Shown here piece after piece: positions 10,360 through 35,454 of a DNA stretch of 64,000 nt. The DNA comes from Patescibacteria group bacterium (lineage in GTDB: Bacteria; Patescibacteriota; Minisyncoccia; Phycocordibacterales; UBA1550), in the NCBI GenBank assembly GCA_038057125.1, contig JBBUDU010000001.1, forward strand, positions 997 to 64,996. Direction: 5' to 3'. A program made the position numbers and the translations under genes. The notes under the pieces were generated by a model. It made no database searches. It worked only from the letters and a program-made list of their open reading frames with translations, and was not told the DNA's origin. Within the stretch, counting starts at the first letter, position 1; each line of letters begins with the position of its first letter.

Positions 10360-10419
10360 ATCATTCCCGCCCCTAACAATTATTTGCTATAGTAAATAAT
10401 TGTTAGGGGCGGGAATGAT
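10360..10419. repeat. 60-nt near-perfect palindrome centred on CTATAG
   Basis: 26-bp arms (A)TCATTCCCGCCCCTAACAATTATTT / AAATAATTGTTAGGGGCGGGAATGA(T) around the loop GCTATAGT. Sits between the divergent thyA and dCMP deaminase genes. Confidence 0.9.
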
Positions 10420-10488
10420 GGACTTTTTATAATTCTTGTGATATACTTTATCTAGTTAATCTTTCGTACTTTTATAAGGAGAGACACT

Positions 10489-11085
10489 ATGAGCGAAGTT
10501 CTCGGATGGGTTCCAAACACAGACCCAAAGGTACTTGCGCGGATGTTCAAGAAAAAGCTTCGGACGGATTACTCGCGTCCGAGCCACTTGGACATTTTTG
10601 CAGAGCAGGCAATTGTTATATCCCAGCGTCCAACATGCATGTTTTACGAAGTAGGCGCTGTCATATTTTATGACGGGTCGCACTTTCTTTCGTCCGGCTA
10701 CAATGGCCCAGCAAGTGGTGACGTTAATCCTCGTGAAGCCGGATGCGCGCGCATTGTTGATGGAAAACTTCAAGAAGGCAAAGGAGTGTGTCGTGGCTCT
10801 CACGCCGAGCTGAATGCAATCAACAACCTCACGGTAAGCACTCTCGGTCTTCAAAATGTGAGCATGATTGTCACGCTTCATCCGTGTTACTCATGCGCAA
10901 AACAGATGGTAAACAAGGGAATCAAAAAAGTTTACTACATCTGGGAGTACGGGAGAGAAGAGTTTGTGGCGGATTATCTTCGCGACAGGAAAGTCGAAGT
11001 AATAAAGTATACATCTCCGATTTTGGAGAAGTGGATTGCTCTCAACGGGTATGACCCGATTGGCGCGACGAATACGCAGGAATGA
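10489..11085 (+). CDS. dCMP (deoxycytidylate) deaminase
   Basis: Zinc motifs HAELNAI and PCYSCAK. AAGGAGAG ribosome-binding site upstream. Confidence 0.8.
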   Translation: MSEVLGWVPNTDPKVLARMFKKKLRTDYSRPSHLDIFAEQAIVISQRPTCMFYEVGAVIFYDGSHFLSSGYNGPASGDVNPREAGCARIVDGKLQEGKGVCRGSHAELNAINNLTVSTLGLQNVSMIVTLHPCYSCAKQMVNKGIKKVYYIWEYGREEFVADYLRDRKVEVIKYTSPILEKWIALNGYDPIGATNTQE

Positions 11086-11095
11086 AAAATGGTTT

Positions 11096-11126
11096 ACCCA
11101 GCCTCTCTAGAGAAGCTGGGTTTTTC
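11096..11126 (+). terminator. Intrinsic terminator after the deaminase gene
   Basis: ACCCAGCCTCTC-TA-GAGAAGCTGGGT followed by TTTTT. Confidence 0.7.
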
Positions 11127-11156
11127 TTTGTATGTTACGCGTGCTACCATACGAAT

Positions 11157-11486
11157 ATGCAATTCAAAGAATACGAGGATCAGGCGATAAAAACTGCTGA
11201 ATACCCGGTTATAGGACAAGGTTTTGTGTATCCAACATTGGGACTCGTTGGCGAGGCTGGCGAGGTGGCGGAGAAAATCAAAAAGCTTTTTCGGAATGAC
11301 GGTGGCGTGCTCACCGACGCGCATCGTGAAGAAATCAAAAAAGAGCTAGGCGATGTGCTCTGGTATTTGGCGGCGCTTTCGCGCGAGCTCGGGTTTACGC
11401 TTGACGATGTTGCTCTGGCAAACATTGCGAAGCTTCGTTCGCGTGTAGAGCGCGGTGTTATAAAAAGTAGCGGAGATAATAGGTGA
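11157..11486 (+). CDS. MazG-like all-alpha nucleoside triphosphate pyrophosphohydrolase
   Basis: EXXE-type motifs GLVGEAGEVAEKIKK and ELGDVLWYLAAL. Start moved to ATG 11157 because 11096-11126 is a terminator. Confidence 0.7.
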   Translation: MQFKEYEDQAIKTAEYPVIGQGFVYPTLGLVGEAGEVAEKIKKLFRNDGGVLTDAHREEIKKELGDVLWYLAALSRELGFTLDDVALANIAKLRSRVERGVIKSSGDNR

Positions 11487-11557
11487 TTGTTTATTATTCT
11501 TTTTTGTGATAAAAAGAATTAGGTTCTTTGATCTTAATTTACGAAGGAGGCAACACA

Positions 11558-12196
11558 ATGAAGACACCGTTCATCGTTCTAGACGGAATGGATGGTTCAG
11601 GCAAAGGAACTCAGGTTGCATTGCTTAAGGAACGGCTTTTGCGGGAAGGGGCACATGTACATTTTACGCGTGAACCCGGTGGAGCAGAGTTTTCTGAGGA
11701 CATTCGTTCGATTATAAAGTCTGCACGTGGTGCAAGCGCCGACATAACAACAATATTCCTTTTATTTTGGGCGGCGCGCAATGAGTGGATGAAGAGAGAC
11801 GTTATTCCTGCACTGGAAAATGAAGTACCAGTTTTTACCGACAGGTGCGACTCATCAACTTTTGCATACCAAGTGTGTGCGGAAAAACATCCAGAACTCG
11901 CAGAGTGGTGTTTCGAAATGCGAGATCGAGTTTTCGGTAGAGCAAAACCCTCGCACTACATTTTCCTTGAAGTGCCACCAGAAGTTGCCCGCAACCGCGC
12001 CATGTCTGATAAAAAACGCGACTCATGCTACTTTGACGAAAAGTCACTTGGGTATTACGAGAGAGTCACGCAGGGATTTAAGGATTTCGGTCTGTCGGTC
12101 GGCTCTACTTCTTTTGTTGATGGGATGCGCGACCCCGCAGTTGTTCATGAAGACATTTGGCGTATTGTTGCCAAAGAGTTGAGGATTGTACGATAA
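11558..12196 (+). CDS. tmk: Thymidylate kinase
   Basis: P-loop DGMDGSGKGT, TREPGG and DRCDSSTFAYQ. GGAGG ribosome-binding site 7 nt upstream of ATG 11558. Confidence 0.8.
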   Translation: MKTPFIVLDGMDGSGKGTQVALLKERLLREGAHVHFTREPGGAEFSEDIRSIIKSARGASADITTIFLLFWAARNEWMKRDVIPALENEVPVFTDRCDSSTFAYQVCAEKHPELAEWCFEMRDRVFGRAKPSHYIFLEVPPEVARNRAMSDKKRDSCYFDEKSLGYYERVTQGFKDFGLSVGSTSFVDGMRDPAVVHEDIWRIVAKELRIVR

Positions 12197-12246: not shown

Positions 12247-12284
12247 CTTTTGTGCTCCGCATGTTATGATTGTTTTGTATCATC

Positions 12285-12923
12285 ATGACTGCGAAAAAAG
12301 CCCCCCTTATTATCATTGATGGCATCGACGGCTCCGGAAAGACCACGCAAACAAACCTCCTCAAAGAGCGTTTGTCTGACGGGCAAGTCGTTTTCACGCG
12401 CCAGCCCGGCGGAACGCCCCTTTCGGAAATGATTCGCGATGTTTTTTCTTCCGCTGAAGCAGTGGAGGCGAGCGCGCGGACTCAGTTTTTTCTTATGTGG
12501 GCATCCCGCACCAACTGGCTCGAAAAAGTGGTGATTCCAAACATAGAAAGAGGAATACCAGTAATCTCGAGTCGCGGTGACTCGGCTACATATGCCTATC
12601 AGGTCCACGCGCGCGAAGCGACCGACCTCGAAGAAGAGTTTTGGCAAATGCGTGAATTTGTAATGGGAAAACACAAACCAAAGATGCACATTATCATTGA
12701 TGTTTCTGCAAAGGATGCGCGCCACCGAATGAATGCCGACAAAAATCGCACAAAGTCGCTCTTTGATTTAAAACCGCTTGATTTTCACGATCGCGCGCGA
12801 GCAGGGTTTCGAGCTTTTGCCGAGCGACTACCAGGTGAAGTAACTATTATTGACGGTTCACGTGACAGAGATGTTATTCACAAGGAGGTGTATGATATTG
12901 TTTCCTCCCTTTGCGGCTGGTAG
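12285..12923 (+). CDS. Second thymidylate-kinase-like dNMP kinase (paralog)
   Basis: P-loop DGIDGSGKTT and TRQPGG. SRGDSATYAYQ replaces the DR(Y/H/C) motif, with Asp changed to Ser. Confidence 0.7.
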   Translation: MTAKKAPLIIIDGIDGSGKTTQTNLLKERLSDGQVVFTRQPGGTPLSEMIRDVFSSAEAVEASARTQFFLMWASRTNWLEKVVIPNIERGIPVISSRGDSATYAYQVHAREATDLEEEFWQMREFVMGKHKPKMHIIIDVSAKDARHRMNADKNRTKSLFDLKPLDFHDRARAGFRAFAERLPGEVTIIDGSRDRDVIHKEVYDIVSSLCGW

Positions 12924-13197
12924 TCGCTCTGGTCTTTTTATCGGATTTCAGCGTTGCAGTTTAGTCTGCGTCCAGGACGCGAATCAGTTGATTCGCCCGC
13001 GCACGATTCTGCAGAATCGCATCGCGCAGTGTCAATTGAAGCGCGACATACAGCTTGGTCACAATGCTCGGTTGCGCCTTGAACTCCGATAAAAATCCTC
13101 AGAGCTTATAGTCTGTCGCGAAATACCGTAAATTTTTTTGTTTCCGTAAGGCGTGGTATGCTCATTTAATATGAATCCCGTTAGAGACCCCCTAGTT

Positions 13198-13455
13198 ATG
13201 TATTACACCTACGTTATCGAGAACGACAAAGGTACATGTTATACTGGCAGCACGGAGGATCTACGGAAACGCTTGAGACAGCACAACGAAGGGCGGTCAA
13301 CGTGGACAAAAGGTAAAGGAGTGTGGAAGGTTATTTATTACGAGGCATGTCTTAATGAGCAAGATGCTCGGTCGAGAGAGATGTATTTAAAATCGGGGAT
13401 GGGTAAGCGCTATATAAAAAGTAGACTCAAGCGTTTTCTGTCTCTAACGGGATGA
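13198..13455 (+). CDS. Small stand-alone GIY-YIG nuclease-family protein
   Basis: YTYVIEN...CYTGSTEDLRKRLRQHN...SREMYLK matches the GIY-YIG core. Alternative upstream starts at 13153 and 13171. The stop overlaps the argS ATG. Confidence 0.65.
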   Translation: MYYTYVIENDKGTCYTGSTEDLRKRLRQHNEGRSTWTKGKGVWKVIYYEACLNEQDARSREMYLKSGMGKRYIKSRLKRFLSLTG

Positions 13456-17670: not shown

Positions 17671-17673
17671 GGT

Positions 17674-19828: not shown

Positions 19829-19874
19829 GATAATTCTAAACTAGATGATCATATCTATAATAATAACTCCAGTA

Positions 19875-20312
19875 TACCTATTTTGTCCTATCGGTGTAAA
19901 TAGGTATAGTAGGAAAGTTGTGGGTAAGCGAAGGATGCGAGCGAGCCACTTGTGGTGGTTTGTAAATTTGTCGATTGCCCATGTATCCTGTCTACCTATT
20001 TTGTCCTATCGGTGTAAATAGGTATAGTAGGAAAGTTGTGGATAAGTGAAGGCGGGGATAAGGTGGTGTGGCTGAAGTGCTGTCTGAAGGTTTTTTGCGT
20101 GATTCTTTTTACCCTGTGTTTCTACTGACACTCTTCTTTTTTATGTACCTATTTGTTCCTATCGGAGTGAATAGGTACATAGGGGGGAATTAAGAAGAAT
20201 TAGATGTGGTAATTAAGATTAGATGTGGTTATGCGGGATCCTTCCTACCTTATGTTTCTACTGACACTCTTCTTTTTTATGTACCTATTTTGTCCTATCG
20301 GTGTAAATAGGT
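19875..20312. repeat. Four dispersed copies of a 30-nt hairpin core with pairwise-conserved flanks
   Basis: Core ACCTATTTTGTCCTATCGGTGTAAATAGGT at 19875-19904, 19994-20023 and 20283-20312. Variant ACCTATTTGTTCCTATCGGAGTGAATAGGT at 20147-20176. Copies 1 and 2 share a 29-nt 3' flank; copies 3 and 4 share a 36-nt 5' flank. Confidence 0.9.
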
Positions 20313-23500: not shown

Positions 23501-26500
23501 AGTCTGGGCGGATGCTGTGACGGTGTCGGGGAGTGTCGGCACTGGAGTAGCTTTGGGGACAGCAAGAAGTATCTCGTGGACAGCTTCCACCGACTACGCG
23601 TCGCAATACAAATCCAACACGCAAAAAATCCGAATCATCGCAGACGATCGCGATGCGGCTAATAACCTTGGATATGGTACTTCTCCGACATTTACTTTAG
23701 ACACGACCGTTCCAGTTATTACCGTTTCTAAACTCGATTCATCAACAGGAGGGAATGCAGTCGGTACTATTTCCTTGACTTCAAACGACGACAGCACGCT
23801 TCAATATAGAATTTGTAATGATAATACATTTCCTTCTTCTGACACACAGGGGAACTCGTGCGCATTTACTACCCTTGCTGCAAGTCCGATTGCAACAACG
23901 ACTATTGCGTGGATTCCCACAGGCGCGCCATCTCACGAATTTGCATATCTTCAAGTCCGCGATGCATACGGTAATGTGACCGCGCAGACTCTCGTTGCTC
24001 CTGCGATGCCGGCAGATTTTTCTTATAATGATGTTTCCAACACTACGACTGGGGTATATCGTGAATTTTTATCATGGGTGCCATTTGTCGCCACCACTTC
24101 ATCTACTTTCGGTTCTTACAAGGTGTACCACTCACTCGATAACTTCGCGACCTCCACTCTTCTCGCAACCATCACCGATTCCTCAGTAAACTATTACCTT
24201 CACACTGTTACAACAGCGACAACTTCACTGCAGTACTACAGAGTGACATCAGTGAACGCTCTTGGAAACGTTTCGAACTTCACAGCCATCATTTCTGATA
24301 TTCCGGATGGAACAGGAGGAGTGGATACAACTCCGCCACACATTCCGATTGCTGGCATCGCCACACCAACAGTAGGAAATTCGTCAGCGAATATTACCTT
24401 TAGCACGTACACCGACACCTCTCTTTCAGTCGGCGAGCTTGCGACATCAACAGTGTTCTACGCTTCATACACAGGGGCTGTTCCTGCTTCGTGCCCAGGT
24501 ACTCCAAAGGTGTCTACGAATACCTACACGGTGAACCACAGCGTTTATCTTACTGGGCTTACACCGTCAACGCAGTATTACTATTGTGTCGTCGCAAGAG
24601 ATATTTCTGGCAATGTGAGCGCGGCAACGACAGCTGTCGGCGGAACATTCACCACCGTGAGCGGACCACTCATTACCAATGTCACCGAGCGCGAAATTAC
24701 CGACATCTCTGCGCTCATTTTTTGGAATACAAACACAAGCTCTGATTCAAAAGTATATTTTTCTGCCACATCGGCTGGGGTAAATGGCGCAACTCCGGTT
24801 AATGGATCTGTGGTTACTGTGGCCGGATCCGATGGCGCATACCAACACCAAATAGGGCTCACTGGTTTGAGCGCAGGACAGACATATTATTATAAAGTTA
24901 CTTCTACTGATACTGCTGGCACCCCCATCACCACGACGAACGACAACAATGGGCAGTACTATAGTTTTGTAACCCTTCGTGACACTACCCCGCCGACTGT
25001 TTCCGGCATTGCCACACCTGTACTCTCCTCAAATGCCGCGGTTATTATTTGGCAGACAAATGAACCTTCAACTACTCAAGTGTTGTGGGGAACCGCGTCT
25101 AGCACTTATACGCGCAATACTGTTATCGACACAACAAAATCTATTTACCACATTGTGACTTTGAGCAGTGGAACATTGGACACTGGATCAGTATCGCAAG
25201 TGCTTACACCTGAAACCACTTATTATTTTGTGGTGAGATCTGCCGATGATGCTGGGAACTTGACCACTTCATCGCAAAGCACGCTTACGACTCCGGCAAC
25301 AGGAAGTGTAACCATAACGACTATTAATGTAGTAAGTAGCGCAAGCTCTGGTTCGGATACAAAAGACACGACCGTTCCGATAATTTCTAATATAAAAGTA
25401 TCTGACATTACACCATTTGCCGCCGTGGTGAAGTTTGATACGGATGAGGATACTGTGGGGTTTGTCGAGTATGGTGCCGCTACTACATACGGCGAGACAG
25501 CGGGCGACAAAACCATGGCAAGATCTCACACCGTAAGACTTCGCGGTCTTACTCTCGGTACCGAATACCACATCAAGGCGACTGCGGTTGATAAGTCCGG
25601 CAATGCCGGCACATCCGGAGACCAAACATTCAAGACCACATTCCTTTCAGAAAACCTGAAAGACATCGCAAACATCGAGAACATTGAAGCCTTCCAGAAA
25701 GAAATTGAAGCCGCCATTGAATCAATTCTCCCATCACTCGTACCGCCGTTTGTTTCAAAGCCGCAGGTCTTGGACATCACGGAAAACTCTGCAACCATTA
25801 CATTCAAAACAAACATCAAAGCATTCCCTGTTGTCGTGTACGCGGACGATGGTTCATACGACGAAAAGAAAGACAATCCTTACACTGGTGAAATCTCGGA
25901 CACCGCTAAAAAATCAGCCGAACATAGTCTTAAGCTCACTGGTCTCAAGGGTAATACAAAGTACCATATTCAAGCTCGTGCATTTTCTCTTCCGAGAGTT
26001 ATCGGAAAGTCTGCCGATGTCACTTTCATTACAAAGGCATCAAAGATCGCCGGCTCTATAGTAGAACGCAAAAAGGATTCATTTACTGTAGTGTGGACGA
26101 CGGATCAGCCAACTTCTTCTATCGTTGAATTTAAGAATGTAAGGTCTGGCATCATAGGGCAGAAGACCAATGAAGCGCTTCGCACATCTCACTCTATGAA
26201 GATTGAGAACCTTCCTCCTGGCACTGCGTACATAGTAAACATTTCGGGAAAGACAGAACAGGGAAATATTGCCGAAGCCGGAAGCTCGATTTCCGTTACC
26301 ACATCGCGCGATGTTACACCGCCGGTGATAACAGGATTCAAAGTTGACAATGCGTTAATCCCGGGCCGAACCGACCGCATTCAAACCATCGTTTCGTGGA
26401 CTACAGACGAGCCTTCAAATTCTACCGCTTACTATGAGGAAGGTACTGGCACAAAAGGAGACACGAAAGAGCTCGCGAACAAGAACTCAGAACTCACTTC

Positions 26501-26702
26501 GTATGTCACCAACCACGCAATCATTCTCCCAAGTTTGAAGCCGGGCACCATCTATCGCCTAAAGGTTACTTCGAGCGACGACAGCGGAAATCTCGGTTCC
26601 TTTGGCCCGCGCACTATCATCACTCCTCAACAGACCGCATCCATTACCGACATTATCTTTAAGAACTTCGAAGATTCATTCAAATTCTTGAAGAAGATTT
26701 AA
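20583..26702 (+). CDS. Giant (~2040 aa) membrane-anchored surface protein with beta-propeller and FN3/PAP-N-like repeats
   Basis: Anchor FIVAVLALVVAGTGVYMY. About 8 repeats GITISPDGTSVYVANxxxNTVSMYSRNTSTGALTAL (YVTN/lactonase-like). About 5-6 NHL-like blades GPxxxAFDASGNLYTANYxxNTVSKITPAG. Seven to eight modules of the form TVxWxTxEPSxSxVxYG...HxVxLTGLxPxTxYxY. Start set at ATG 20583; the listed ORF begins at TTG 20472. Confidence 0.8.
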   Translation: MRNIFHHSTAFIARHKHHHHFIVAVLALVVAGTGVYMYRHELAQAATYTFTQTSWAGGVTTATSTHTSNQSNWTQYSATSTNITAGAGGVSLTSTSKVAGDDGVALSALATPTTASLNSGPRGITTSPDGTSVYARSYDTINMYSRNTSTGALTALATPTIAAAGDPFGITVSPDGISVYAVLAGNASVAMYSRDTSTGALTALGTPTIATESDPLDITISPDGTSVYTVNNASSTISMYSRDTSTGALTALGTPTIAAGDPTGITISPDGTSVYVANYSGNTVSMYSRNMSTGALTALATPTIAAGSYPYGIIISADGISVYATNNGGDTVSMYSRNTGTGALTALATPTIATGTTPIGLFISLDGTSVYVANNSGNTVSMYSRNTSTGALTALATPTIAAGTNPRGITISPDGTSVYVTNYNSGTISMYSRSAYGGALGFAAGTFASTEVSFWAGASSSVGLAQTTTNLNVIHQSGNLSKITTSGTVSTTSVGVTYPNALIFGTDGNLFVANSGGNTIRKVTPGGTVTTFATVGAGPNGPAFDASGNLYTANYDDNTVSKITPAGAVTTFATVGAGPRYLAFDTTGNLYTANYSSSTISKITPAGATTTFATVGAGPYSLAFDASGNLYTANYDANTVSKITPAGAVTTFATGFNCPSSFAFDTAGTLLVGNYCDGVISKVTTGGVTSTFVTIETNPRASTFDKVYASSGTFTSAVINTGVESYFSTLAYTTTLNGQTITVDARAGNTATPDGTWTSWQTGIASGGSISGLSYNRYIQYRANFSTSDTAVTPTLNSVTINYGQYALSGDLTSSKYDTEATANLISNVLWSASSTSASETVRFQVRSSSAGTTWTNWCGPATACDGTDYFTVSTGVSGGIVSGHPLRSDSNDRFLQYKAFLASAGGATPTLTSATVQYVVNAPPVISNITASQGSTGAVTVGYDLADSDNAIGNIVDVTLQYCTTNCSAGSEVWADAVTVSGSVGTGVALGTARSISWTASTDYASQYKSNTQKIRIIADDRDAANNLGYGTSPTFTLDTTVPVITVSKLDSSTGGNAVGTISLTSNDDSTLQYRICNDNTFPSSDTQGNSCAFTTLAASPIATTTIAWIPTGAPSHEFAYLQVRDAYGNVTAQTLVAPAMPADFSYNDVSNTTTGVYREFLSWVPFVATTSSTFGSYKVYHSLDNFATSTLLATITDSSVNYYLHTVTTATTSLQYYRVTSVNALGNVSNFTAIISDIPDGTGGVDTTPPHIPIAGIATPTVGNSSANITFSTYTDTSLSVGELATSTVFYASYTGAVPASCPGTPKVSTNTYTVNHSVYLTGLTPSTQYYYCVVARDISGNVSAATTAVGGTFTTVSGPLITNVTEREITDISALIFWNTNTSSDSKVYFSATSAGVNGATPVNGSVVTVAGSDGAYQHQIGLTGLSAGQTYYYKVTSTDTAGTPITTTNDNNGQYYSFVTLRDTTPPTVSGIATPVLSSNAAVIIWQTNEPSTTQVLWGTASSTYTRNTVIDTTKSIYHIVTLSSGTLDTGSVSQVLTPETTYYFVVRSADDAGNLTTSSQSTLTTPATGSVTITTINVVSSASSGSDTKDTTVPIISNIKVSDITPFAAVVKFDTDEDTVGFVEYGAATTYGETAGDKTMARSHTVRLRGLTLGTEYHIKATAVDKSGNAGTSGDQTFKTTFLSENLKDIANIENIEAFQKEIEAAIESILPSLVPPFVSKPQVLDITENSATITFKTNIKAFPVVVYADDGSYDEKKDNPYTGEISDTAKKSAEHSLKLTGLKGNTKYHIQARAFSLPRVIGKSADVTFITKASKIAGSIVERKKDSFTVVWTTDQPTSSIVEFKNVRSGIIGQKTNEALRTSHSMKIENLPPGTAYIVNISGKTEQGNIAEAGSSISVTTSRDVTPPVITGFKVDNALIPGRTDRIQTIVSWTTDEPSNSTAYYEEGTGTKGDTKELANKNSELTSYVTNHAIILPSLKPGTIYRLKVTSSDDSGNLGSFGPRTIITPQQTASITDIIFKNFEDSFKFLKKI

Positions 26703-26733
26703 AAAAAGGGGTGGTAAATAAAGACAGACAGCG

Positions 26734-26775
26734 CTCACTAAAATAAACCGCCATATGGCGGTTTATTTTAGTGAG
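26734..26775 (+). terminator. Terminator-like perfect hairpin after the giant gene
   Basis: CTCACTAAAATAAACCGCCATATGGCGGTTTATTTTAGTGAG. Confidence 0.6.
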
Positions 26776-26793
26776 TTAGTCAAGACAGTACGC

Positions 26794-26837
26794 ACTGTAC
26801 ACGTATAAAAACCTATAGTACTATATACGTGTACAGT
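26794..26837. repeat. Palindromic element abutting the start codon of PaaX-like paralog 2
   Basis: Arms ACTGTACACGTATA / TATACGTGTACAGT around AAAACCTATAGTACTA. About 70 percent identical, in register, to the element at 27387-27436. Confidence 0.85.
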
Positions 26838-27374
26838 ATGAAAAAGTATCAACGCGATGAAATAAAAGAAATAATCCTCTCAACCCTCCTTGTTGCGGGA
26901 GTGATCGCTATCGCTGTTACTATGCCGAATGCGGTGCAACTTTTCAAATACTTCAAACCCAAGAACACATATGATCGCACGCGCATAAAGCAGTCAGTCT
27001 ATCGTCTGGAAAAACAAGGATTTATAAAAAGAAAAGATGCAGGGTATGTTCTTACGGCGAGTGGGACAAAGAAGGCAATCTATTACAAAATAGAATCTAT
27101 GAAGATTGTTCGTCAAAAGGAATGGGATGGTAAATGGCGCATAGTGATGTTTGATGTTCCGGAAGAAAGGAAAATGGCTCGACGCGCAATACACAACGCG
27201 CTCAAAGAACTGGGTTGCGTACAATATCAGAAGTCTGTTTTTGTAACACCTTTTCCGTGCAAAAACGAGGTTGATTTTATAGGAGATTATTTTGGGGTAC
27301 GGGGGAATATTCGAATTATTATTGCAAGTGAGATTGAAGGAGGGAAAATCCTCCGAAATGCCTTTTGCTTGTAA
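26838..27374 (+). CDS. PaaX-like protein (wHTH plus Cas2-like fold), paralog 2
   Basis: WDGKWRIVMFDVPEERKMARRAIHNALKELGCVQYQKSVFVTPF. Collinear similarity to 19280-19828 over its whole length. ATG 26838 preferred over GTG 26829. Confidence 0.55.
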   Translation: MKKYQRDEIKEIILSTLLVAGVIAIAVTMPNAVQLFKYFKPKNTYDRTRIKQSVYRLEKQGFIKRKDAGYVLTASGTKKAIYYKIESMKIVRQKEWDGKWRIVMFDVPEERKMARRAIHNALKELGCVQYQKSVFVTPFPCKNEVDFIGDYFGVRGNIRIIIASEIEGGKILRNAFCL

Positions 27375-27386
27375 CTCAATGTCCTA

Positions 27387-27436
27387 CCCCATGCACACGT
27401 ATAGGAACCTATAGGTTCCTATACGTGTGCATGGGG
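27387..27436. repeat. 50-bp perfect palindrome centred on CTATAG
   Basis: CCCCATGCACACGTATAGGAACCTA|TAGGTTCCTATACGTGTGCATGGGG. Confidence 0.95.
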
Positions 27437-27523
27437 GCATGATTGGTTTGTGGTATGAATGATTGAGGGGATATTGGAGGTTGATTTTTGTGCGCCTACT
27501 AATGTATGGTATTCTGAAGAAAT

Positions 27524-30500
27524 ATGGCTGATAAAGAAAAAGATACAAAAAATTTGGCGACAGAGGCAGTTCAAGAACCTCAATCGAAAAAACTTTCGGA
27601 TATTTCGATGCGCGAGGAAGAAACTCTTGCGCGCTGGCAGTCCGCGCACATTTTTGAAAAGTCGCTTGACCAAACGAAAGGAGGCGAGGAGTTTATTTTT
27701 TACGACGGTCCGCCATTTGCGACCGGTCTTCCACACTATGGGCACTTTCTTCCAAACTTGATGAAAGATGTGATTCCACGCTACCAGACGATGCGCGGAC
27801 GATATGTTCGACGTGTGTGGGGTTGGGATTGCCACGGGCTCCCAATTGAAAATTTAATTGAAAAAGAGCTCGGGCTCGGGCACAAAAAAGACATAGAGGA
27901 ATATGGTCTTGAAAAGTTTAACGAAGCCTGTCGCGAGTCAGTGTATCGCTATGATACTGAATGGAAAAAAATGATTCCGCGTATTGGGCGATGGGTAGAT
28001 ATGGAACATTCGTACAGTACGATGAATGCAAACTACACCGAGAGCGTGTGGTGGGCTTTTAAAACACTATACGAAAAAGGTCTGGTGTATCAAGGGTTCA
28101 AGTCGATGCACATTTGCCCAAGATGCGAGACGACACTTTCAAACAACGAAATCGCGCTTGGATACAAAGATATTACTGATATTTCGGTAACGATAAAATT
28201 TGAATTGGTTGATGAACCCGGTACATTTATTTTAGCTTGGACGACAACCCCATGGACATTACCCGGCAATGTCGCGCTTGCGGTAAACCATGAGGAGGAG
28301 TATGTGAAAGTTTCCGTTGGAGATGAAAAATATATTTTAGCAAATACGCGCGCGGGAATCGTGTTTGCCGGCAAAGTATATACTGTCCTCGAGCAGATTA
28401 ATGGCGCTGACCTTGTTGGTAAACCATACAAACCTATTTTTGATTATTATTCGCAAGACAATACGATTAAAAATCATAAAAACGGTTGGAAAATATATGC
28501 GGGGGATTTTGTAACGATGGATAGTGGTACCGGCGTGGTGCATATCGCGCCAGCATTCGGCGAGGACGACATGGCGCTTGGTGTCCGTGAAAATTTGCCG
28601 TTTGTGCAACATGTTGCAATGGACGGCACGATGAAAAGTGAAGTGCGTGATTTCGCAGGTGCTTCGGTAAAGCCAAAAGGAGAAAAAAATGACAGCCATC
28701 AGGTGACAGACATCTTGATTATTAAACACCTCGCGCATGCAGGAGCGCTTTTTTCAAAAGAAAAAATAATTCACGCATATCCGCACTGCTGGCGTTGCGA
28801 TACACCACTTTTAAATTACGCGGCAGAGTCATGGTTTGTAAAAGTGCCTGACTTAAAAGACAAACTCCTCGCAGAAAATGCAAAGACATCATGGGTACCA
28901 AAAAATATGCGTGATGGTCGTTTTGGTAAGTGGCTCGAAGGCGCGCGCGATTGGGCTATTTCTCGTTCGCGTTTTTGGGGCGCGCCTATTCCCGTATGGC
29001 AGTGTGAAAAATGCAATGAGCGCAAAGTTTTCGGCTCGCGAGAGGAGCTTTCTGAACACACAAAAAAATCCGGTAATAGATATATTGCAATGCGACACGG
29101 CGAGGCCGAGAGCAATGCGCGCGGTATTGTGAGCTCAAAGATTGACGGAAGCACTTCGTACGGCTTAACGGAAAAGGGACGTCTGTCAGCAGAAAAAGCA
29201 GGCCTCGAGCTTTCAGGAGACAAGATTGACATCATAATCACTTCGCCTTTTGCGCGTACCAAGCAAACTGCAGAAATTGTCGCCAAGGCCATTGGTCTTG
29301 ATGCGCAAAAGATTATTGTCGATGAGCGCGTCAAAGAAATCGATACTGGTATCTTTGACGGAAAACCAATTGCCTTATATCGCGAACACTTCGCTTCTAT
29401 AGAGGAAAAATTTACTAAGCGTCCGGAAAGTGGCGAAAACTTGCTTGATGTAAAGCGTCGTGTAATGTCACTTATATCTGAACTTGAAAACGAACATAAA
29501 GGGAAGACTATTCTGATTGTAACGCACGAATATCCGATATGGATGCTTGCTTCCGGGTCACGTGGTGCTACTGTAAATGAATCTGTCGCGATGCGCGGAG
29601 ACAAAGAAGATTTTCTCGCAACGAGCGGCGTTCTTGATATAAAGTACGCGCCATTTCCGCACAATGCGGATTTTGAATTTGATCTCCATTTGCCGTACAT
29701 AGATACGGTTGAAGTGTCGTGTAAATGCGGAGGGCATATGTCACGCGTGCCATATGTTTTTGACTGCTGGTTTGAGTCCGGCTCGATGCCGTACGCACAG
29801 TTTCATTACCCGTTTGAAAACAAAGAGCTTTTTGAAAAGAATTTTCCAGCAAACTTTATTGCCGAGGGTGTCGACCAAACGCGCGGATGGTTTTATTCTC
29901 TAATGGTTCTTTCCGTTGGACTTTTTGGCAAGGCGCCGTTTAAGAATGTTATCGTGAACGGAATGGTACTCGCGGAGGACGGACAAAAAATGTCGAAGAG
30001 CCGAAAGAATTATCCAGACCCGTGGGATATTTTGAATCAATACGGCGCTGATGCTGTGCGGTATTATTTGCTTTCATCACCAATTGTGCATGCCGAAGAC
30101 CTCGCGTTTCTTCCGCGTGGCGTTGATGAGGTGGTGAAGAAATTTATTATGCGTTTATCCAATGTACTCTCATTTTATGAGCTTTACCGCGTAGAAGAAG
30201 ACACTACAATACATACTCGCGCGCCTAATGTTCTTGACCAGTGGATACTCGCGCGCCTGAAAGAAGTTACTTGTGAAGAAACCGCGGCACTCGACGCGTA
30301 CGAGATCGACCGTGCGGTGAAGCCTCTCAGTCTTTTTGTGGACGACCTATCGACATGGTATCTTCGTCGTTCGCGCGATCGATTTAAGTCTGAAGATGCG
30401 AATGACCGTGCTACCGCTCTCGCGACCACTCGCATTGTGCTTCTTGAGTTTTCAAAACTTATCGCTCCGGTAATGCCGTTTCTCGCGGACCATATTTATT

Positions 30501-31069
30501 TGCGCGCAGGAGGAAAAAAAGAGAGCGTGCACCTTGAAAAATGGAATGAAATGTCTTCAGTAATGTGTGCGGACCATGAAGTCGCAGTCCTTGAAGGAAT
30601 GGCAGAAGCACGCCGTACCGTGTCACTTGCTCTTGAGGCGCGCGCCAAGGCGGGAATAAAAGTTCGTCAACCACTCGCGCGGCTCACGCTTAAAAATGTA
30701 GCGCTCAAAGGCAAGGACGAGTATATTGCACTCATCATAGATGAGGTGAATGTAAAAGAAATTTCGTTTGATGCTACGATTTCCCTAGACGTTATTCTCG
30801 ACACAAATATCACACCCGACTTAAAACGCGAAGGGCAGTTTCGCGATTTGGTACGAACCGTGCAAGGACTCCGAAAAGAAATGAAACTCATGCGAACGGA
30901 CGATATTGTTTTGAAGATAAAAACAACGACAATTGGGAAGGAGCTTGTGGAGACATTTGCTCTGGAATTAAAAAGAGTAGCGTTTATTCGCGAGATTCTG
31001 TTTACAGAAGTAAGCGGAGAAACCGTCGACATTGACGGAGTCACCTTTGTTTTTTTGATAGAGAAGTAG
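27524..31069 (+). CDS. ileS: Isoleucyl-tRNA synthetase (type 2) with an inserted histidine-phosphatase domain
   Basis: PPFATGLPHYGH, KMSKSRKN and the WCISR-like WAISRSRFWG. Insert of ~200 aa at nt 29072-29680 carries RHGEAESN, SPFARTKQTAE and ILIVTHEYPI. Confidence 0.9.
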   Translation: MADKEKDTKNLATEAVQEPQSKKLSDISMREEETLARWQSAHIFEKSLDQTKGGEEFIFYDGPPFATGLPHYGHFLPNLMKDVIPRYQTMRGRYVRRVWGWDCHGLPIENLIEKELGLGHKKDIEEYGLEKFNEACRESVYRYDTEWKKMIPRIGRWVDMEHSYSTMNANYTESVWWAFKTLYEKGLVYQGFKSMHICPRCETTLSNNEIALGYKDITDISVTIKFELVDEPGTFILAWTTTPWTLPGNVALAVNHEEEYVKVSVGDEKYILANTRAGIVFAGKVYTVLEQINGADLVGKPYKPIFDYYSQDNTIKNHKNGWKIYAGDFVTMDSGTGVVHIAPAFGEDDMALGVRENLPFVQHVAMDGTMKSEVRDFAGASVKPKGEKNDSHQVTDILIIKHLAHAGALFSKEKIIHAYPHCWRCDTPLLNYAAESWFVKVPDLKDKLLAENAKTSWVPKNMRDGRFGKWLEGARDWAISRSRFWGAPIPVWQCEKCNERKVFGSREELSEHTKKSGNRYIAMRHGEAESNARGIVSSKIDGSTSYGLTEKGRLSAEKAGLELSGDKIDIIITSPFARTKQTAEIVAKAIGLDAQKIIVDERVKEIDTGIFDGKPIALYREHFASIEEKFTKRPESGENLLDVKRRVMSLISELENEHKGKTILIVTHEYPIWMLASGSRGATVNESVAMRGDKEDFLATSGVLDIKYAPFPHNADFEFDLHLPYIDTVEVSCKCGGHMSRVPYVFDCWFESGSMPYAQFHYPFENKELFEKNFPANFIAEGVDQTRGWFYSLMVLSVGLFGKAPFKNVIVNGMVLAEDGQKMSKSRKNYPDPWDILNQYGADAVRYYLLSSPIVHAEDLAFLPRGVDEVVKKFIMRLSNVLSFYELYRVEEDTTIHTRAPNVLDQWILARLKEVTCEETAALDAYEIDRAVKPLSLFVDDLSTWYLRRSRDRFKSEDANDRATALATTRIVLLEFSKLIAPVMPFLADHIYLRAGGKKESVHLEKWNEMSSVMCADHEVAVLEGMAEARRTVSLALEARAKAGIKVRQPLARLTLKNVALKGKDEYIALIIDEVNVKEISFDATISLDVILDTNITPDLKREGQFRDLVRTVQGLRKEMKLMRTDDIVLKIKTTTIGKELVETFALELKRVAFIREILFTEVSGETVDIDGVTFVFLIEK

Positions 31070-31072
31070 TGT

Positions 31073-31660
31073 ATGTCACATCATATTTATCACACGCGTG
31101 GCGTCATATTGAGTAGTCGGCCTGCAGGCGAATCAAATCGTTTTTATAAAATTTTTACAGAAGAATTGGGGCTCGTGGGGGCCACGGCGCAGTCGGTGCG
31201 CGAAGGGAAGTCAAAGCTCCGCTATACTCTCCAAGATTTTTCCATCGTTACGATTGATTTTGTACGCGGAAAAGAAGTGTGGCGAATTGTTAGTGCTGGT
31301 GTATGGCGCCCGCTTGAAACCATAAAAAAGGACTCCATTCGCATAAAGCTCCTCGCGGGTTTTTATTCTCTTTTGTTGAGACTCCTTCACGGCGAAGGTC
31401 GTGACCAAGAACTTTTTGCAGAAATTATCGCTGTGGTGGATTTTCTGGAAAAACAAATAATTCCTCAAGAACTTACGCTTTCCTTTGAAACCCTTACTGC
31501 GTTTCGTGTGCTCGTGCATTTGGGTTACGCGGATGCCAAGGGTTTCGACAATTTCTTGAGCCCTGCCCCGTATTCTTTGGATCTTTTGCTCCAGTTTGAA
31601 AAGATTCGCTCAAAAGTGCTTACGCAAATCAACGATTCGCTGAGTGCTTCACACCTTTAG
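31073..31660 (+). CDS. recO: DNA repair protein RecO (short form)
   Basis: N-terminal OB-fold pattern HTRGVILSSRPAGESNRFYKIFTEELGLVGATAQSVR...LQDFS. 195 aa. Confidence 0.5.
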   Translation: MSHHIYHTRGVILSSRPAGESNRFYKIFTEELGLVGATAQSVREGKSKLRYTLQDFSIVTIDFVRGKEVWRIVSAGVWRPLETIKKDSIRIKLLAGFYSLLLRLLHGEGRDQELFAEIIAVVDFLEKQIIPQELTLSFETLTAFRVLVHLGYADAKGFDNFLSPAPYSLDLLLQFEKIRSKVLTQINDSLSASHL

Positions 31661-31678
31661 ACATGGTATAATAGCGAG

Positions 31679-33589
31679 ATGTCAGACGATGTAAAAGATA
31701 AAATTGCAGAGCTCGAAAAGGAGCTTTATTCGAAAGATTTTAAAACACATGTAGCAGAGGATATTGTGCCGCAAAAAAAAGCACCACAAGCTTCTGTGTG
31801 GGGCGATGTGGGTGTGGTAACTTCATTTTTAGATAAAAGACTAAGCTCTGAGGAAAAACATCATATAATGAAAAAATTTGTTAAAATCTCCGCAAGTTTT
31901 TTCGTTATAGCGGCAATTGTTTCAGGGTTTATTTGGTGGCGTGGCGCGAATATCATTTCGGGAGAAAATATTGCGATTGATATCGCTACACCTTTTACTG
32001 TTGCTGGTGGGGATTCGTTTGAAACAAAATTTACAATAACCAATAACAACAAAGTTCCGGTTGATATGGCAACACTTTTTGTGGAATATCCTGCCGGTTT
32101 TTACTCTGTCGGAGACAATACCGAGCTTCCACGCATCTCAAAAGACCTAGGAAGTATCGCATTAGGTCAATCTGTTACTATGAGTGTAAGTACCCTTTTG
32201 TATGGTGAGAACAACACAAATAAAGAAGTATCCCTGACACTCGAGTATCGCATGGCGGGTTCAAATGCAGTACTTAAAAAATCAAAAACGTATTTGATAA
32301 AAATCGCATCATCACCGGTTAATGTAAAATTACAGATGCTCAAAGAGGTTAGTTCTGGGCAAGAGATCAACCTTATCGTAGACATTGCTTCAAACAGCAA
32401 GGACCCAATAAGTACACTTGTTATTTCCGCAGCGTACCCTGCTGGCTTTAGTTTTCTAAGCGCCGACCCCGCACCTTCGTACTCCACGAATACATGGAGT
32501 TTTGCAGGTCTTTCTCCTCAAGAAAAACGCACCATAAAAATTCGCGGAGTTATTGAAGGACAAGAAAATGAGGAAAAGGTGACAAAGATTTCTCTTGGAA
32601 TCCCGAGCACGAAAGACGAGCGTCTTATTGGTGTTGTGTACAATGCAACCACCGAATCCAGTATCATCATGAAGTCTGTTTTGGGAATTGATCTCGTCGT
32701 AAATAACAACCGCGTACAGAACAATGTTGCATCCCTTGGTAAAGGCGTGAAGGTTGAGGTATTTTGGCAGAATAACAATCCTACCAGAGTTTCTGATGCG
32801 GTAATCGAAGTTAAATTAAAAGGGGTGATACTTGACCGGTATTCCATATATGCATCAGGCGGCGGTTTTTATCGGTCGGTGGACAACACTATTGTGTGGG
32901 ACAAAACAGGTGCCAGTGAGCTGGGGTCCCTAGATCCTGGCGCACGCGGTGCCGTAAGTTTTAGTTTTTCTCCAATTTCACTCGGTGTTGATGCATCTCG
33001 CATTGTAAAAAATCCGCAAATGATTTTTGAAGTGCGCGCAACCGCTCGGCGTATTTCAGAGGCGAGCGCTTCCGAAGACATCACGACATTTGCAACACGC
33101 AGTGTAAAGTTTGAAACAGATTTGCGTGTTCTTGCTCGCGGACTCTATTTTTCTGGACCATTCGAAAACACTGGTCCGGTTCCGCCACAGGCAGACAGAG
33201 AAACAACATACACAATATTGCTGTCAATACGCAATTCATCAAACAACGTTTCAAATGCGCTGGCAAAAACAACATTGCCTATTTATGTGAAGTGGCTCGG
33301 TAGGGTTTCTCCGGACGGCGAGGGTATTACCTATAATGAAAGTACTAGAGAGATAACATGGAATGTTGGGCGCATCCAAACTGGTGGAACACGCGACGCA
33401 GCATTTCAGATTTCATTTTTGCCAAGCGTGAGCCAGATTAACAGTGCTCCGTTCCTAATGGGAGATACATTTTTGACAGGGACTGATGATTTCACAAAGA
33501 CCGAGATAAGTGACAAAAAGGCGGCTTTGACGACTCATATTTCATCAGATCCGCAATTTAGCCCAAATGACGCAAATGTGGTAAATTAG
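31679..33589 (+). CDS. Single-pass membrane protein with a large beta-rich extracytoplasmic region, unknown function
   Basis: 636-aa ORF. Charged N-terminus, then TM FVKISASFFVIAAIVSGFIWW, then repeated Ig-like-looking segments. Confidence 0.5.
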   Translation: MSDDVKDKIAELEKELYSKDFKTHVAEDIVPQKKAPQASVWGDVGVVTSFLDKRLSSEEKHHIMKKFVKISASFFVIAAIVSGFIWWRGANIISGENIAIDIATPFTVAGGDSFETKFTITNNNKVPVDMATLFVEYPAGFYSVGDNTELPRISKDLGSIALGQSVTMSVSTLLYGENNTNKEVSLTLEYRMAGSNAVLKKSKTYLIKIASSPVNVKLQMLKEVSSGQEINLIVDIASNSKDPISTLVISAAYPAGFSFLSADPAPSYSTNTWSFAGLSPQEKRTIKIRGVIEGQENEEKVTKISLGIPSTKDERLIGVVYNATTESSIIMKSVLGIDLVVNNNRVQNNVASLGKGVKVEVFWQNNNPTRVSDAVIEVKLKGVILDRYSIYASGGGFYRSVDNTIVWDKTGASELGSLDPGARGAVSFSFSPISLGVDASRIVKNPQMIFEVRATARRISEASASEDITTFATRSVKFETDLRVLARGLYFSGPFENTGPVPPQADRETTYTILLSIRNSSNNVSNALAKTTLPIYVKWLGRVSPDGEGITYNESTREITWNVGRIQTGGTRDAAFQISFLPSVSQINSAPFLMGDTFLTGTDDFTKTEISDKKAALTTHISSDPQFSPNDANVVN

Positions 33590-33604
33590 AAAGTAACAAA
33601 AAAG

Positions 33605-34948
33605 ATGGAAAAGAAACCATACCCTAAAGACATGATGGAAAAACTTGTGTCGCTTTGTAAGCGGAGAGGCTTTATTTATCAAGGGTCCGAAATCTATGGT
33701 GGGCTCGCGGGAACGTACGACTACGGACCACTTGGTACCGCTCTAAAAAACAATATCAAGAATCTCTGGTGGAAAATGTTTGTTGATGGTCGTGACGACA
33801 TGTATGGCATGGACGCGTCTATTCTCATGAACCCGCGCGTATGGGAAACAACAGGGCATGTTGCCGGTTTTGCCGACCCGCTTGCCGAGTGCACAAAATG
33901 CAAAAAGCGTTTTCGTGCAGACCAACTCGAGGATAGAAAAAAGTGTCCCGCCTGCGGCGGAGCGCTTGGCGCGGAACGACAATTTAACATGATGCTCTCG
34001 ACGCGCGTTGGGGCGATGGAAGACTCTTCATCTATCTCGTATCTTCGACCAGAGACGGCGCAAGGAATGTTTGTGAATTTTAAAAATGTAATGGACTCGT
34101 TTCATCCAAAGATACCGTTTGGCATTGGGCAAGTCGGAAAAGCGTTTAGGAACGAAATCACACCGCGCGATTTTATTTTTCGTTTGCGCGAGCTCGAGCA
34201 GATGGAGGTGGAATACTTTGTAAAAGAAAGTGACTGGGAGCGTGCATTTGAAGAGTGGCGTGTGGCAATGGGAAACTGGATTGATGTTGTAGGTATTGAC
34301 CGCGCGCGTACGCACGAGGTGGAGATAGAAGACCGCGCGCACTATTCAAAACGCACCATTGATTTTGAGTTTGACTACCCATTCGGACAAAAAGAATTAT
34401 ACGGTCTCGCATACCGCACCGACTTTGACCTCTCTCGTCATTCCGAGGCAAGCAAAGTGGATTTGTCATATCGCGACGAGGAAGCTGGAGAAAGGTTCAT
34501 CCCGCACGTTATCGAGCCGTCGTTTGGTCTTGATCGCACGATGCTCGCAGTGCTTCTATCTGCGTACACAGAAGACACAATGGGTGCAAAAGAAGAAAGC
34601 GAACCGCGAGTATTCTTGAAATTTCACCCTCGTGTCGCTCCCATCAAAGCCGCCGTATCACCGCTTCTTAAAAACAAACCGGAACTCGTCGCAAAAGCAC
34701 GCGAGATATATGTAATGCTTAAAAAAGAAATTCCACAAATAATGTGGGACGACAACGGCAATGTCGGCAAGCGCTACAGACGACAGGATGAAATTGGCAC
34801 ACCGTTTTGTATTGTGATTGATTTTGATACTTTGGGCGAAACTCCGGAGCACAAAGATACTGTAACTGTCCGCGACCGCGACACGGGCGAGCAAGAGCGC
34901 CTAGTAATTAGTGAATTGACAAATTACTTAAAAAACGCTATAAAGTAG
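33605..34948 (+). CDS. glyQS: Glycyl-tRNA synthetase (dimeric class II, GlyQS type)
   Basis: N-terminus KRRGFIYQGSEIYGGLAGTYDYGPLG, plus class II motif regions. Confidence 0.9.
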   Translation: MEKKPYPKDMMEKLVSLCKRRGFIYQGSEIYGGLAGTYDYGPLGTALKNNIKNLWWKMFVDGRDDMYGMDASILMNPRVWETTGHVAGFADPLAECTKCKKRFRADQLEDRKKCPACGGALGAERQFNMMLSTRVGAMEDSSSISYLRPETAQGMFVNFKNVMDSFHPKIPFGIGQVGKAFRNEITPRDFIFRLRELEQMEVEYFVKESDWERAFEEWRVAMGNWIDVVGIDRARTHEVEIEDRAHYSKRTIDFEFDYPFGQKELYGLAYRTDFDLSRHSEASKVDLSYRDEEAGERFIPHVIEPSFGLDRTMLAVLLSAYTEDTMGAKEESEPRVFLKFHPRVAPIKAAVSPLLKNKPELVAKAREIYVMLKKEIPQIMWDDNGNVGKRYRRQDEIGTPFCIVIDFDTLGETPEHKDTVTVRDRDTGEQERLVISELTNYLKNAIK

Positions 34949-35004
34949 CGAGAGTTTAGTGTTTGGTTTTTCCTTCGTCCCTCAACAACTTTTGGAGATA
35001 CGCA

Positions 35005-35340
35005 ATGAAACTTGCCCTTCTTACTTTTTCACTGTGTGTGCTGTTTGTCATCGCGGCGGTAACTCAATCCGACTTGAGATTTTTTGTACCCGCCGCTTCC
35101 ATAGGTCTACTGGCGCTCTTCATGGCTTACTATGACGGTAAAGGGCAAATACTTACCGAAAAAGAGATGGGAAATGTAATTTATGCTGTCGAGTGTGACA
35201 TGATACTTGGCAAACGCGATGTCGTGATTGTCCGCACCAAGACGGGTAAACTTCGGGCATGTATTAGTCCTGAAAATGGATTTGACCTATTTGCTATAAA
35301 AGGAGACAGGGAAAGATTTCTTGTCCCGAAAAACAGATAA
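35005..35340 (+). CDS. Small membrane protein, hypothetical
   Basis: GGAG ribosome-binding site before ATG 35005. Two TM helices. Confidence 0.45.
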   Translation: MKLALLTFSLCVLFVIAAVTQSDLRFFVPAASIGLLALFMAYYDGKGQILTEKEMGNVIYAVECDMILGKRDVVIVRTKTGKLRACISPENGFDLFAIKGDRERFLVPKNR

Positions 35341-35360
35341 TTTCAATTGCTATTGTATTC

Positions 35361-35395
35361 AAAACGGCTCGAGCAATCGAGCCTTTTTTATTTTG
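35361..35395 (+). terminator. Intrinsic terminator
   Basis: GGCTCGA-GCAA-TCGAGCC followed by TTTTTTATTTT. Confidence 0.75.
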
Positions 35396-35400
35396 GTCAT

Positions 35401-35454
35401 TTTCCTCTTGTTACCTATTTGTTCCTATAGGAACAAATAGGTAACAAGAGGAAA
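35401..35454. repeat. 54-bp perfect palindrome centred on CTATAG, related to the 19.9-20.3 kb hairpin core
   Basis: TTTCCTCTTGTTACCTATTTGTTCCTA|TAGGAACAAATAGGTAACAAGAGGAAA. The inner 30 nt match the 20147-20176 core at 27 of 30 positions. Confidence 0.95.

Follow-up and report, generated by a model that had tools for sequence, protein, structure and literature searches.

The 64,000-nucleotide stretch of DNA analysed here (the window in what follows), from contig JBBUDU010000001.1 of a Patescibacteria group bacterium, carries a set of very long palindromes centred on the hexamer CTATAG, some of which lie on either side of genes for short PaaX-like proteins. The question raised by this locus is what recognises these palindromes. 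An earlier note on the same DNA had put forward a protein acting on a hairpin tip or cruciform, with the RAYT of the window or the PaaX-like proteins as candidates. The second candidate has gained support: the palindromes bracket PaaX-like genes both in the window and in roughly half of 80 loci from related genomes, and the palindrome arms co-vary with the protein clade. The CTATAG palindromes that bracket PaaX-like genes in related groundwater Patescibacteria are most likely binding sites of that family, and neither terminators nor RAYT targets. With moderate confidence we go further and read the CTATAG palindromes as operators, that is, as cognate duplex binding sites of short PaaX-like proteins, which form a lineage-specific family with several paralogues and would be dimeric and repressor-like. 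A literature search of incomplete coverage returned no description of the palindromes, of the short family or of their pairing, and the absence of this association from the literature searched is not proof of novelty. The elements concerned are the following:

2538-2567, small solo hairpin AGCAATAGTGAGCTATCGTGCACTATTGCT with GCTATCG at its centre, between the divergent dsbA-like and pgi genes
10360-10419, P1, solo palindrome of 60 bp with a single G/T mismatch beside CTATAG, centre TTTGCTATAGTAAA
19280-19828, minus strand, PaaX-like gene 2, 182 aa, Pfam PF20803 with E=2.9e-17
19873-19908, R1, TATACCTATTTTGTCCTATCGGTGTAAATAGGTATA, first of four hairpins upstream of PaaX-like gene 2, strain-invariant
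19993-20024, R2, second hairpin copy, lying with R1 within a 67-bp duplicated unit
20142-20181, R3, TATGTACCTATTTGTTCCTATCGGAGTGAATAGGTACATA, sharing TACCTATTTGTTCCTA with P3
20270-20325 (core 20280-20316), R4, fourth copy, lying with R3 within an 89-bp duplicated unit
26794-26837, P2b, upstream of PaaX-like gene 1, with 14-16 nt arms (ACTGTACACGTATA/TATACGTGTACAGT) around AAAACCTATAGTACTA, centre CCTATAGT
26838-27374, plus strand, PaaX-like gene 1, 178 aa, Pfam PF20803 (PaaX_M) with E=2.8e-19 and a weak Cas2 match
27387-27436, P2, perfect palindrome of 50 bp downstream of PaaX-like gene 1
35401-35454, P3, perfect solo palindrome of 54 bp with arms of the PaaX-like gene 2 family

A scan of the window located P1, P2 and P3 as CTATAG-centred palindromes of 50-60 bp where the earlier note had placed them, and the smaller elements (P2b, the hairpins near 20 kb and the one at 2538) as it had described them, its "26794-27837 region" being a slip for 26794-26837. 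The gene context agrees as well: P1 lies between the divergent thyA and dCMP deaminase-MazG-Tmk genes, the 2538 hairpin is likewise placed between divergent genes, and P3 follows a separate terminator (35366-35383). Counting only perfect palindromes whose arms reach 14 nt or more, the window has 13, and in seven of these the arms reach 20 nt or more; 20 dinucleotide-preserving shuffles of the window yielded none at the 14-nt limit. The hexamer CTATAG as such shows no enrichment (8 occurrences, 6.9 expected). Four of its occurrences are intergenic, each of them exactly at the centre of a palindrome, and the remaining four are intragenic. In the window plus the related loci, 56 of 167 long palindromes are CTATAG-centred. 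Three independent assemblies of close strains contain the palindromes without a single base change, so these are not assembly artefacts; since the palindromes are invariant, a search for compensatory changes between strains was uninformative.

The idea of a constant centre with variable arms stands in so far as the palindromes make up one family, but some of the arms are related. ACACGTATA and AACCTATAGG are common to P2 and P2b, with ACACGTATA..AACCTATAG shared by their arms. P3, which spans 35397-35458 when two mismatches are permitted, shares TACCTATTTGTTCCTA (16 nt) with the four hairpins upstream of PaaX-like gene 2, so that P3-type arms recur 15 kb away, and each of those hairpins has CCTATCGG at its centre. 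The arms of the 2538 hairpin resemble the CCAGCAA...GC(T/G)ATAGC family found around a second PaaX-like subfamily of relatives (compared at 6773-6824 of locus L009, 19750-19783 of L004, and in L051; L numbers denote the loci retrieved). P1 belongs to an arm family with no cognate gene inside the window. A metagenome scan with the P1 arm, made in search of the cognate gene, gave two palindromic relatives, on contigs from the same aquifer (L084, L088), which have the P1 core and different outer arms and no PaaX-like gene adjacent in these short loci; six further matches were non-palindromic and apparently due to chance.

The association with the protein family was measured in 80 homologue-encoding loci from species-representative Parcubacteria genomes, using one palindrome finder with thresholds of our own choice and gene calls from a longest-open-reading-frame heuristic; the loci were picked for encoding the protein, and the counts describe those loci rather than whole genomes. 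Of 77 loci, 40 have a long palindrome in the 250 bp upstream of the gene and 40 have one in the 250 bp downstream, 29 loci having both, against about 0.05 expected per flank from the density elsewhere in the same loci (0.19 palindromes per kb). About half of the distant homologues have no palindrome at the thresholds used. Among close homologues the upstream sites end 0-40 bp from the ATG, and downstream sites lie 30-140 bp past the stop codon; in the window, the 3' end of P2b is the last base ahead of the ATG of PaaX-like gene 1. Palindromes of homologues with about 50% identity or more nearly always have (G/A)TACTATAGTA as their centre, and those of more distant homologues have GCTATAGC, GCCATGGC, GCATATGC, GCGATCGC, GCTTAAGC, GTCATGAC or GCGGCCGC.

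The arms carry further information on this pairing. The two palindromes that flank one gene have matching arms, different paralogues have different arms, and the arm families (ACGTATA, ACTATCTACTTATA, CTGACTATGTATA, TCCAATTTGG, GCCTATNT and TACCTATTT) track the protein clades, with up to five paralogues per genome among the fetched loci. Solo copies bearing the arms of a given paralogue are found at kilobase distances from it or on a different contig of its genome, as with the solo copy in L024 that matches the unit of L022 on another contig; there are about 14 of them in 1.07 Mb of flanking DNA and three in the window. L006 and L030 have three sites each, between DHFR, SHMT and the PaaX-like gene, inside a thymidylate cluster. 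In L038 the orthologue of PaaX-like gene 2 (71% identical) is bracketed by TACCTATTTACATCTATAGATGTAAATAGGTA palindromes, and the slot between HisRS and the M16 peptidase gene holds a long palindrome (1965-2010) of an arm family different from that of P3. Between the window and a close strain, the unit of PaaX-like gene 1 and the spacer containing P3 show no differences, with flanking genes 1-9% divergent; given that divergence along this region is mosaic, such conservation is only suggestive. The mosaic pattern itself (window 22713-37374 compared with strain locus L081) runs from 9.0% in HisRS, 7.3% in the M16 peptidase gene and 4.4% in a giant surface-protein gene down to 0.3% in RecO, 0.5% in the gene at 34963 and 0% across the whole PaaX-like gene 1 unit, which suggests recombination or a sweep.

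A position at gene boundaries would also suit action at the RNA level, with the palindromes folding, in the 5' or 3' untranslated region of a transcript, into long hairpins that cause termination, give stability or are sites of processing, the PaaX-like gene being merely their commonest neighbour. Perfect arms of 20-36 nt would indeed give extremely stable RNA hairpins, their symmetry is retained at positions that vary between sites, and a symmetric element could serve both directions in convergent spacers. We nevertheless think this quite improbable. A T-run (six or more T in the next 10 nt) follows just 6 of the 44 downstream copies, a separate canonical terminator stands beside P3, P2b and the L009 palindrome at 6773 (next to 6834-6865), and an Rfam scan of the window matched no family. 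The four bases at the centre, left without partners in a hairpin, show strict conservation and self-complementarity, and the sequence itself is conserved at -15..-9 beyond what pairing requires; the tight link to one protein family would also go unexplained. Ordinary intrinsic termination, which the earlier note already thought unlikely, was rejected on the same T-run count, on the terminators beside P3 and P2b, and on the location of P1 between two gene starts. One palindrome of a different kind, perfect over 70 bp (41634-41703), is flanked by an A-run and a T-run and separates the convergent genes for SSB and EF-P; it overlaps the 3' end of the EF-P reading frame and resembles an unusually long bidirectional intrinsic terminator.

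Which protein, then, is encoded between the palindromes? PaaX-like genes 1 and 2 are 41% identical at the protein level (BLASTP, 4e-53), and the Pfam family that both match, PaaX_M (PF20803), is the Cas2-like central domain of PaaX. The AlphaFold2 model of the gene 1 product (mean pLDDT, the predicted local distance difference test, 80.6) has three helices and a wing, a long linker helix, and a beta-alpha-beta-beta-alpha-beta ferredoxin fold of the Cas2-like type; Foldseek ranks Rv0674 (3kfw) and E. coli PaaX (8a39) as its nearest solved structures, with Cas2 chains next. A sequence search against solved structures gave only weak matches to MarR, PaaX and AspA. No profile match to PaaX_C, the C-terminal effector domain, was found, and the two proteins end after the Cas2-like fold. 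The homologues retrieved (n=366) come from Patescibacteria wherever a source is named (Parcubacteria/Paceibacterota, Yonathbacteria-like); the family counts 2,556 cluster representatives at E<=1e-10, and nearly all of the best 150 of these are 160-240 aa long. The PaaX-like proteins begin with a strongly hydrophobic helix (IILSTLLVAGVIAIAV; in the gene 1 product, window 26838-26930, residues 6-28), modelled with low confidence; its residues 6-22 could belong to the winged helix as helix 1, or anchor the protein in the membrane.

The C-terminal half of these proteins resembles Cas2 both in its ferredoxin fold and in its motifs, MFD(V/I)PE with its Asp and YQKSVF being invariant across the family alignment; Cas2 profiles match this stretch, and some database records label the proteins Cas2. 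Unlike the Cas2 of CRISPR-Cas adaptation, they have a DNA-binding head fused ahead of the Cas2-like fold. They also differ from an adaptation module in their surroundings. No cas1, recombinase or transposase other than the RAYT was found among the scanned open reading frames (ORFs) of the window, three ORFs at 61398-63556 having been left unscanned, and no Cas1 domain was present in the annotated strain loci L081-L083, the other 80 loci not having been searched for cas1. A CRISPR array was seen neither in the window nor in these strain loci. The repeats at 19.9-20.3 kb were considered as a CRISPR-like array and rejected: the hairpins are 116-154 bp apart, irregular, and within duplicated units of 67-89 bp, with no cas1. 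A link to phages or to defence was also set aside, as no homologues were found among 2.9 million viral contigs, no PHROG family matched and a PADLOC defence search gave only partial Cas2 matches; a zeta-toxin match obtained with the Cas2-like half alone proved spurious. Winged-helix proteins of the AspA type and of the MarR/DtxR type match the winged-helix part weakly in profile and fold and have palindromic sites at their own promoters, but they dimerise through another module, and nothing around the genes studied here points to partition or metal sensing. The neighbours of the PaaX-like genes are housekeeping genes (IleRS, the giant surface protein, sulfatases and the dTMP-synthesis cluster), with no link to paa genes. 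The proteins are most like a PaaX-type repressor and lack two of the features that define PaaX, and are best called a short PaaX-like family with a winged helix-turn-helix head and a Cas2 fold.

The anatomy of the sites bears on whether duplex DNA or a hairpin is read. When 74 sites were aligned on their dyad, each half-site consisted of AC[CG]TAT[AT] at -15..-9, three variable bases, and T[AG]CTA up to the dyad (centre T[AG]CTA·TAG, the point marking the dyad). Arm symmetry is complete (100%) at -16..-9, stays near 0.9 as far as -20 and at 0.5-0.7 as far as -25, and falls to background past about -27. An extra CTAT is often present near -24, and (C/G)TAT thus recurs every ~10-11 bp, on one face of the helix. 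The central tetranucleotides are self-complementary in every subfamily (TATA, ATAT, CATG, GATC, TTAA and GGCC). Since these four bases cannot pair in a hairpin and are nonetheless self-complementary and conserved, they argue for a two-fold symmetric protein on duplex DNA and make the recognition of a hairpin tip or cruciform, as first proposed, the less likely mode.

The same centre might instead be read by RNA polymerase, without any dedicated repressor, if the palindromes were symmetric bidirectional core promoters with TATAGT, at the dyad or in the outer arms, as their -10 element. TATAGT does match TATAAT at five of six positions on both strands, P1 contains a mirrored promoter-like CTAACA-16-AATAAT on both strands within the palindrome (weak evidence) with divergent genes on either side, and in L004 and L009 an outer-arm TATAGT stands 8 nt ahead of the ATG, with the spacing of the TGTGGTATNCT-N8-ATG promoter-like motifs of this lineage. 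Against this, distant subfamilies have GC-rich centres (GCCATGGC, GCGATCGC, GCGGCCGC), there is no -35-like signal at -25..-20, where G is almost absent, the distance from TATAGT to the ATG ranges between 0 and over 20 nt, some copies are located in convergent spacers, and a scan of P2, P2b and P3 found no promoter-like sites. We give this explanation very little chance. As a separate observation, the promoter-like motif TGTGGTAT(T/G)CT ends 8 nt before the ATG of the IleRS and GIY-YIG/ArgRS genes and is conserved across genomes (window 27499-27526 and 13150-13174; L004 19835-19857; L038 ~9810-9832; L009 10640-10660), a pattern that suggests extended -10 promoters and leaderless mRNAs in this lineage.

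The other candidate of the earlier note was the RAYT of the window, an IS200-like HUH Y1 transposase (53093-53749) that would recognise and spread the palindromes as repetitive extragenic palindromic (REP) elements. Its presence in the window and the nature of REP elements as extragenic palindromes speak for it. The RAYT is, however, flanked by palindromes of its own (53019-53054 and 53758-53821; CCCCATAGGACTCCCCTATGT, centre TGTACA), which are unrelated to those considered here, and across the 80 loci the CTATAG palindromes track the PaaX-like genes; a tblastn match to the window RAYT was found in only four of these loci (L018, L038, L046 and L049), and no GTAG-type 5' tetranucleotide is evident at centre-aligned positions. 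The chance that the RAYT acts on the CTATAG palindromes appears close to negligible. A copy of the REP arm (CCCCATAGGACTCCCCTATGT) is also present inside the RAYT (Y1_Tnp) coding sequence, at ~53251-53271.

If the palindromes are operators of the PaaX-like proteins, each protein of ~180 aa would comprise a winged helix-turn-helix head, a long helix and a Cas2-like ferredoxin fold that serves as dimerisation module, as in PaaX. The dimer would sit on a dyad-symmetric site of ~40-50 bp, with the shared TA-rich centre (TACTA·TAGTA) under the dimer axis and the two winged-helix heads reading paralogue-specific arm bases ~9-20 bp from the dyad, a widely spaced geometry like that of E. coli PaaX. 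PaaX is alike in having a very long dyad-symmetric operator with widely spaced elements (TGATTC-N27-GAATCA) and in repressing its own promoter (PMC9493321), so that long operators with widely spaced half-sites appear to be a trait of this architecture. The short family would parallel such autoregulation, its cognate 40-60 bp palindromes, with conserved elements 9-20 bp from the dyad, lying at the distance from the start codon given above. A site so close to the start codon would allow autoregulation through promoter occlusion or a roadblock. A terminator (26734-26775) lies directly upstream of P2b, so the promoter of PaaX-like gene 1 most likely overlaps P2b, and a protein bound there, wedged between terminator and ATG, would occlude or block transcription of its own gene. 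The second site, past the stop codon, might serve looping or insulation from neighbouring transcription, and solo sites may extend control to a few other genes: thyA/dCMP deaminase at P1, the M16 peptidase at P3 (candidate start codons 47-86 bp after the palindrome), and DHFR/SHMT in relatives. Quasi-palindrome correction and extension by template switching is an established mutational process, and, acting on a protein-maintained core, it would most simply account for the perfection of the palindromes and for their site-specific outward extension.

The likeness to PaaX has its limits. PaaX proteins, known from the phenylacetate catabolon of E. coli and Pseudomonas, are ~305-316 aa long with a C-terminal ligand-binding domain that senses phenylacetyl-CoA, a domain that the short family lacks. 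The latter is also distinguished by the absence of paa genes, its Patescibacteria hosts, several paralogues per genome, no evident inducer, sites on both sides of the gene, palindromes perfect over 40-70 bp, and the shared TACTATAGTA dyad.

Several observations weigh against operator function as a sufficient explanation. The gene next to the downstream site is convergent in 17 of 42 cases, and convergent intergenic regions also hold 5 of the 14-15 solo sites; no promoter is there to be controlled. The conserved promoter-like motif of IleRS, TATGGTATTCTGAAGAAATATG, is ~100 bp downstream of the P2 centre, too far for simple occlusion, and no promoter hexamer at constant spacing from the sites was found. 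The outer arms are symmetric at positions that differ among sites of one paralogue, as in the outer 11 bp per arm of P3 compared with R1-R4, the three L006 sites, and L088 with the P1 core and other outer arms; a protein footprint alone is insufficient to explain this, although the test of symmetry at differing positions is biased toward symmetry by its definition of "differ" and was used only qualitatively. Co-variation of arms and clades is also what simple co-inheritance would be expected to produce. Finally, the palindrome-gene-palindrome unit has been swapped or inverted as a block between fixed flanks, a behaviour more typical of mobile cassettes.

This last point is clearest between the giant surface-protein gene (20472-26702) and IleRS, where three related genomes hold three different units between a constant terminator and the constant IleRS motif: PaaX-like gene 1 in the window, the orthologue of PaaX-like gene 2 in inverted orientation in L038, and in L004 a subfamily only 34% identical with CCAGCAAATTCTCGCGATAGCG palindromes. 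Other slots (Tmk/GIY-YIG-ArgRS and dsbA/pgi) are filled in relatives and not in the window; L027 has a complete palindrome-gene-palindrome unit at dsbA/pgi, where the window holds only the 2538 hairpin. The unit may therefore be a mobile or replaceable selfish or domesticated element, REP/RAYT-like or cassette-type, its Cas2-like domain being a metal-dependent nuclease whose substrates are the palindromes in duplex, hairpin or cruciform form and whose site of action may be the CTA·TAG dyad, and the solo palindromes being dispersed copies or scars of gene loss by recombination between flanking copies. This would account for the exchanged slots, for a gene bracketed irrespective of the orientation of its neighbour, for solo copies in convergent regions and for the site-specific perfect symmetry of the outer arms. 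The two flanking palindromes of L004 are reverse complements of each other, and the invariance of the Cas2-type motifs, including the Asp, together with the Cas2 profile matches, would fit an enzyme. As with RAYT and REPIN elements, a single-copy gene is bracketed by cognate extragenic palindromes, each of several paralogues per genome has its own palindrome family, extra intergenic copies occur, and inheritance is largely vertical with occasional loss.

The parallel is incomplete, however. The short PaaX-like protein is not an HUH Y1 transposase, and the genuine RAYT of this window has its separate repeats. The palindromes have no conserved GTAG-type 5' tetranucleotide, are longer and perfect through the dyad, and their solo copies in the sampled loci are few rather than hundreds (~14 in the 1.07 Mb of flanks). 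Near-identical copies were not seen within a genome: the window proteins are mostly 30-65% identical to the fetched homologues, and the two paralogues of the window are 41% identical to each other. Some units are stably syntenic, that at Tmk/ArgRS being kept in L004, L006, L009, L014 and L030. At the three variants of the giant-protein/IleRS slot no target-site duplication or shared junction was seen by eye, no systematic search having been made, and a profile scan found no transposase domain within the unit. The lack of viral and PHROG relatives and the self-complementary central tetranucleotides, which favour duplex over hairpin recognition, count on the same side, as does the fact that the catalytic residues of Cas2 are dispensable for its one established role. 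We therefore hold the cassette explanation to be possible but unlikely. A narrower version, in which the short winged helix-turn-helix-Cas2 proteins are the enzymes of an unrecognised palindrome-based Patescibacteria element parallel to RAYT/REPIN, with a Cas2-fold nuclease that cuts or nicks the CTA·TAG dyad, we regard as distinctly doubtful. Were it true, the unit would be excised, inverted or exchanged between intergenic slots, leaving solo palindromes behind, and a Cas2 relative would have a stand-alone, DNA-targeted activity outside CRISPR. A Cas2-like domain catalytic on its sites would in general mean a new palindrome-handling element with a bearing on the origin of Cas2.

Operators of the PaaX-like proteins thus remain the reading that we favour, and its interest lies in the hosts. 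Patescibacteria have tiny genomes with very few recognisable regulators, and their transcription control is almost unexplored. Here each paralogue is paired, by computation alone, with a readable site of ~50 bp, which provides testable protein-site pairs from uncultivated organisms, a natural set of orthogonal specificities on a common scaffold, and a route toward predicting small regulons such as that of thymidylate synthesis. A mechanistic puzzle comes with them, since the perfect palindromes far exceed the usual operator length, flank the gene on both sides, and move with it as a block.

The remainder of the window consists of housekeeping genes, some with features of their own. The IleRS-like gene (27524-31069, 1181 aa) has a His_Phos_1 domain at residues 522-685, within the class I synthetase core, an architecture that is also found in the annotation of three strain assemblies. 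Two tandem thymidylate kinase paralogues (11528-12196 and 12270-12923) follow thyA, dCMP deaminase and MazG, and in relatives this cluster also includes DHFR and SHMT. The giant surface-type protein (2076 aa in the window; 2076, 2079 and 2135 aa across strains) contains lactonase/NHL beta-propellers, Fn3 and Big_3 domains and internal repeats. A small ORF for a GIY-YIG nuclease domain (13153-13455, 100 aa) runs into the start of the arginyl-tRNA synthetase gene, a position that is kept in relatives.

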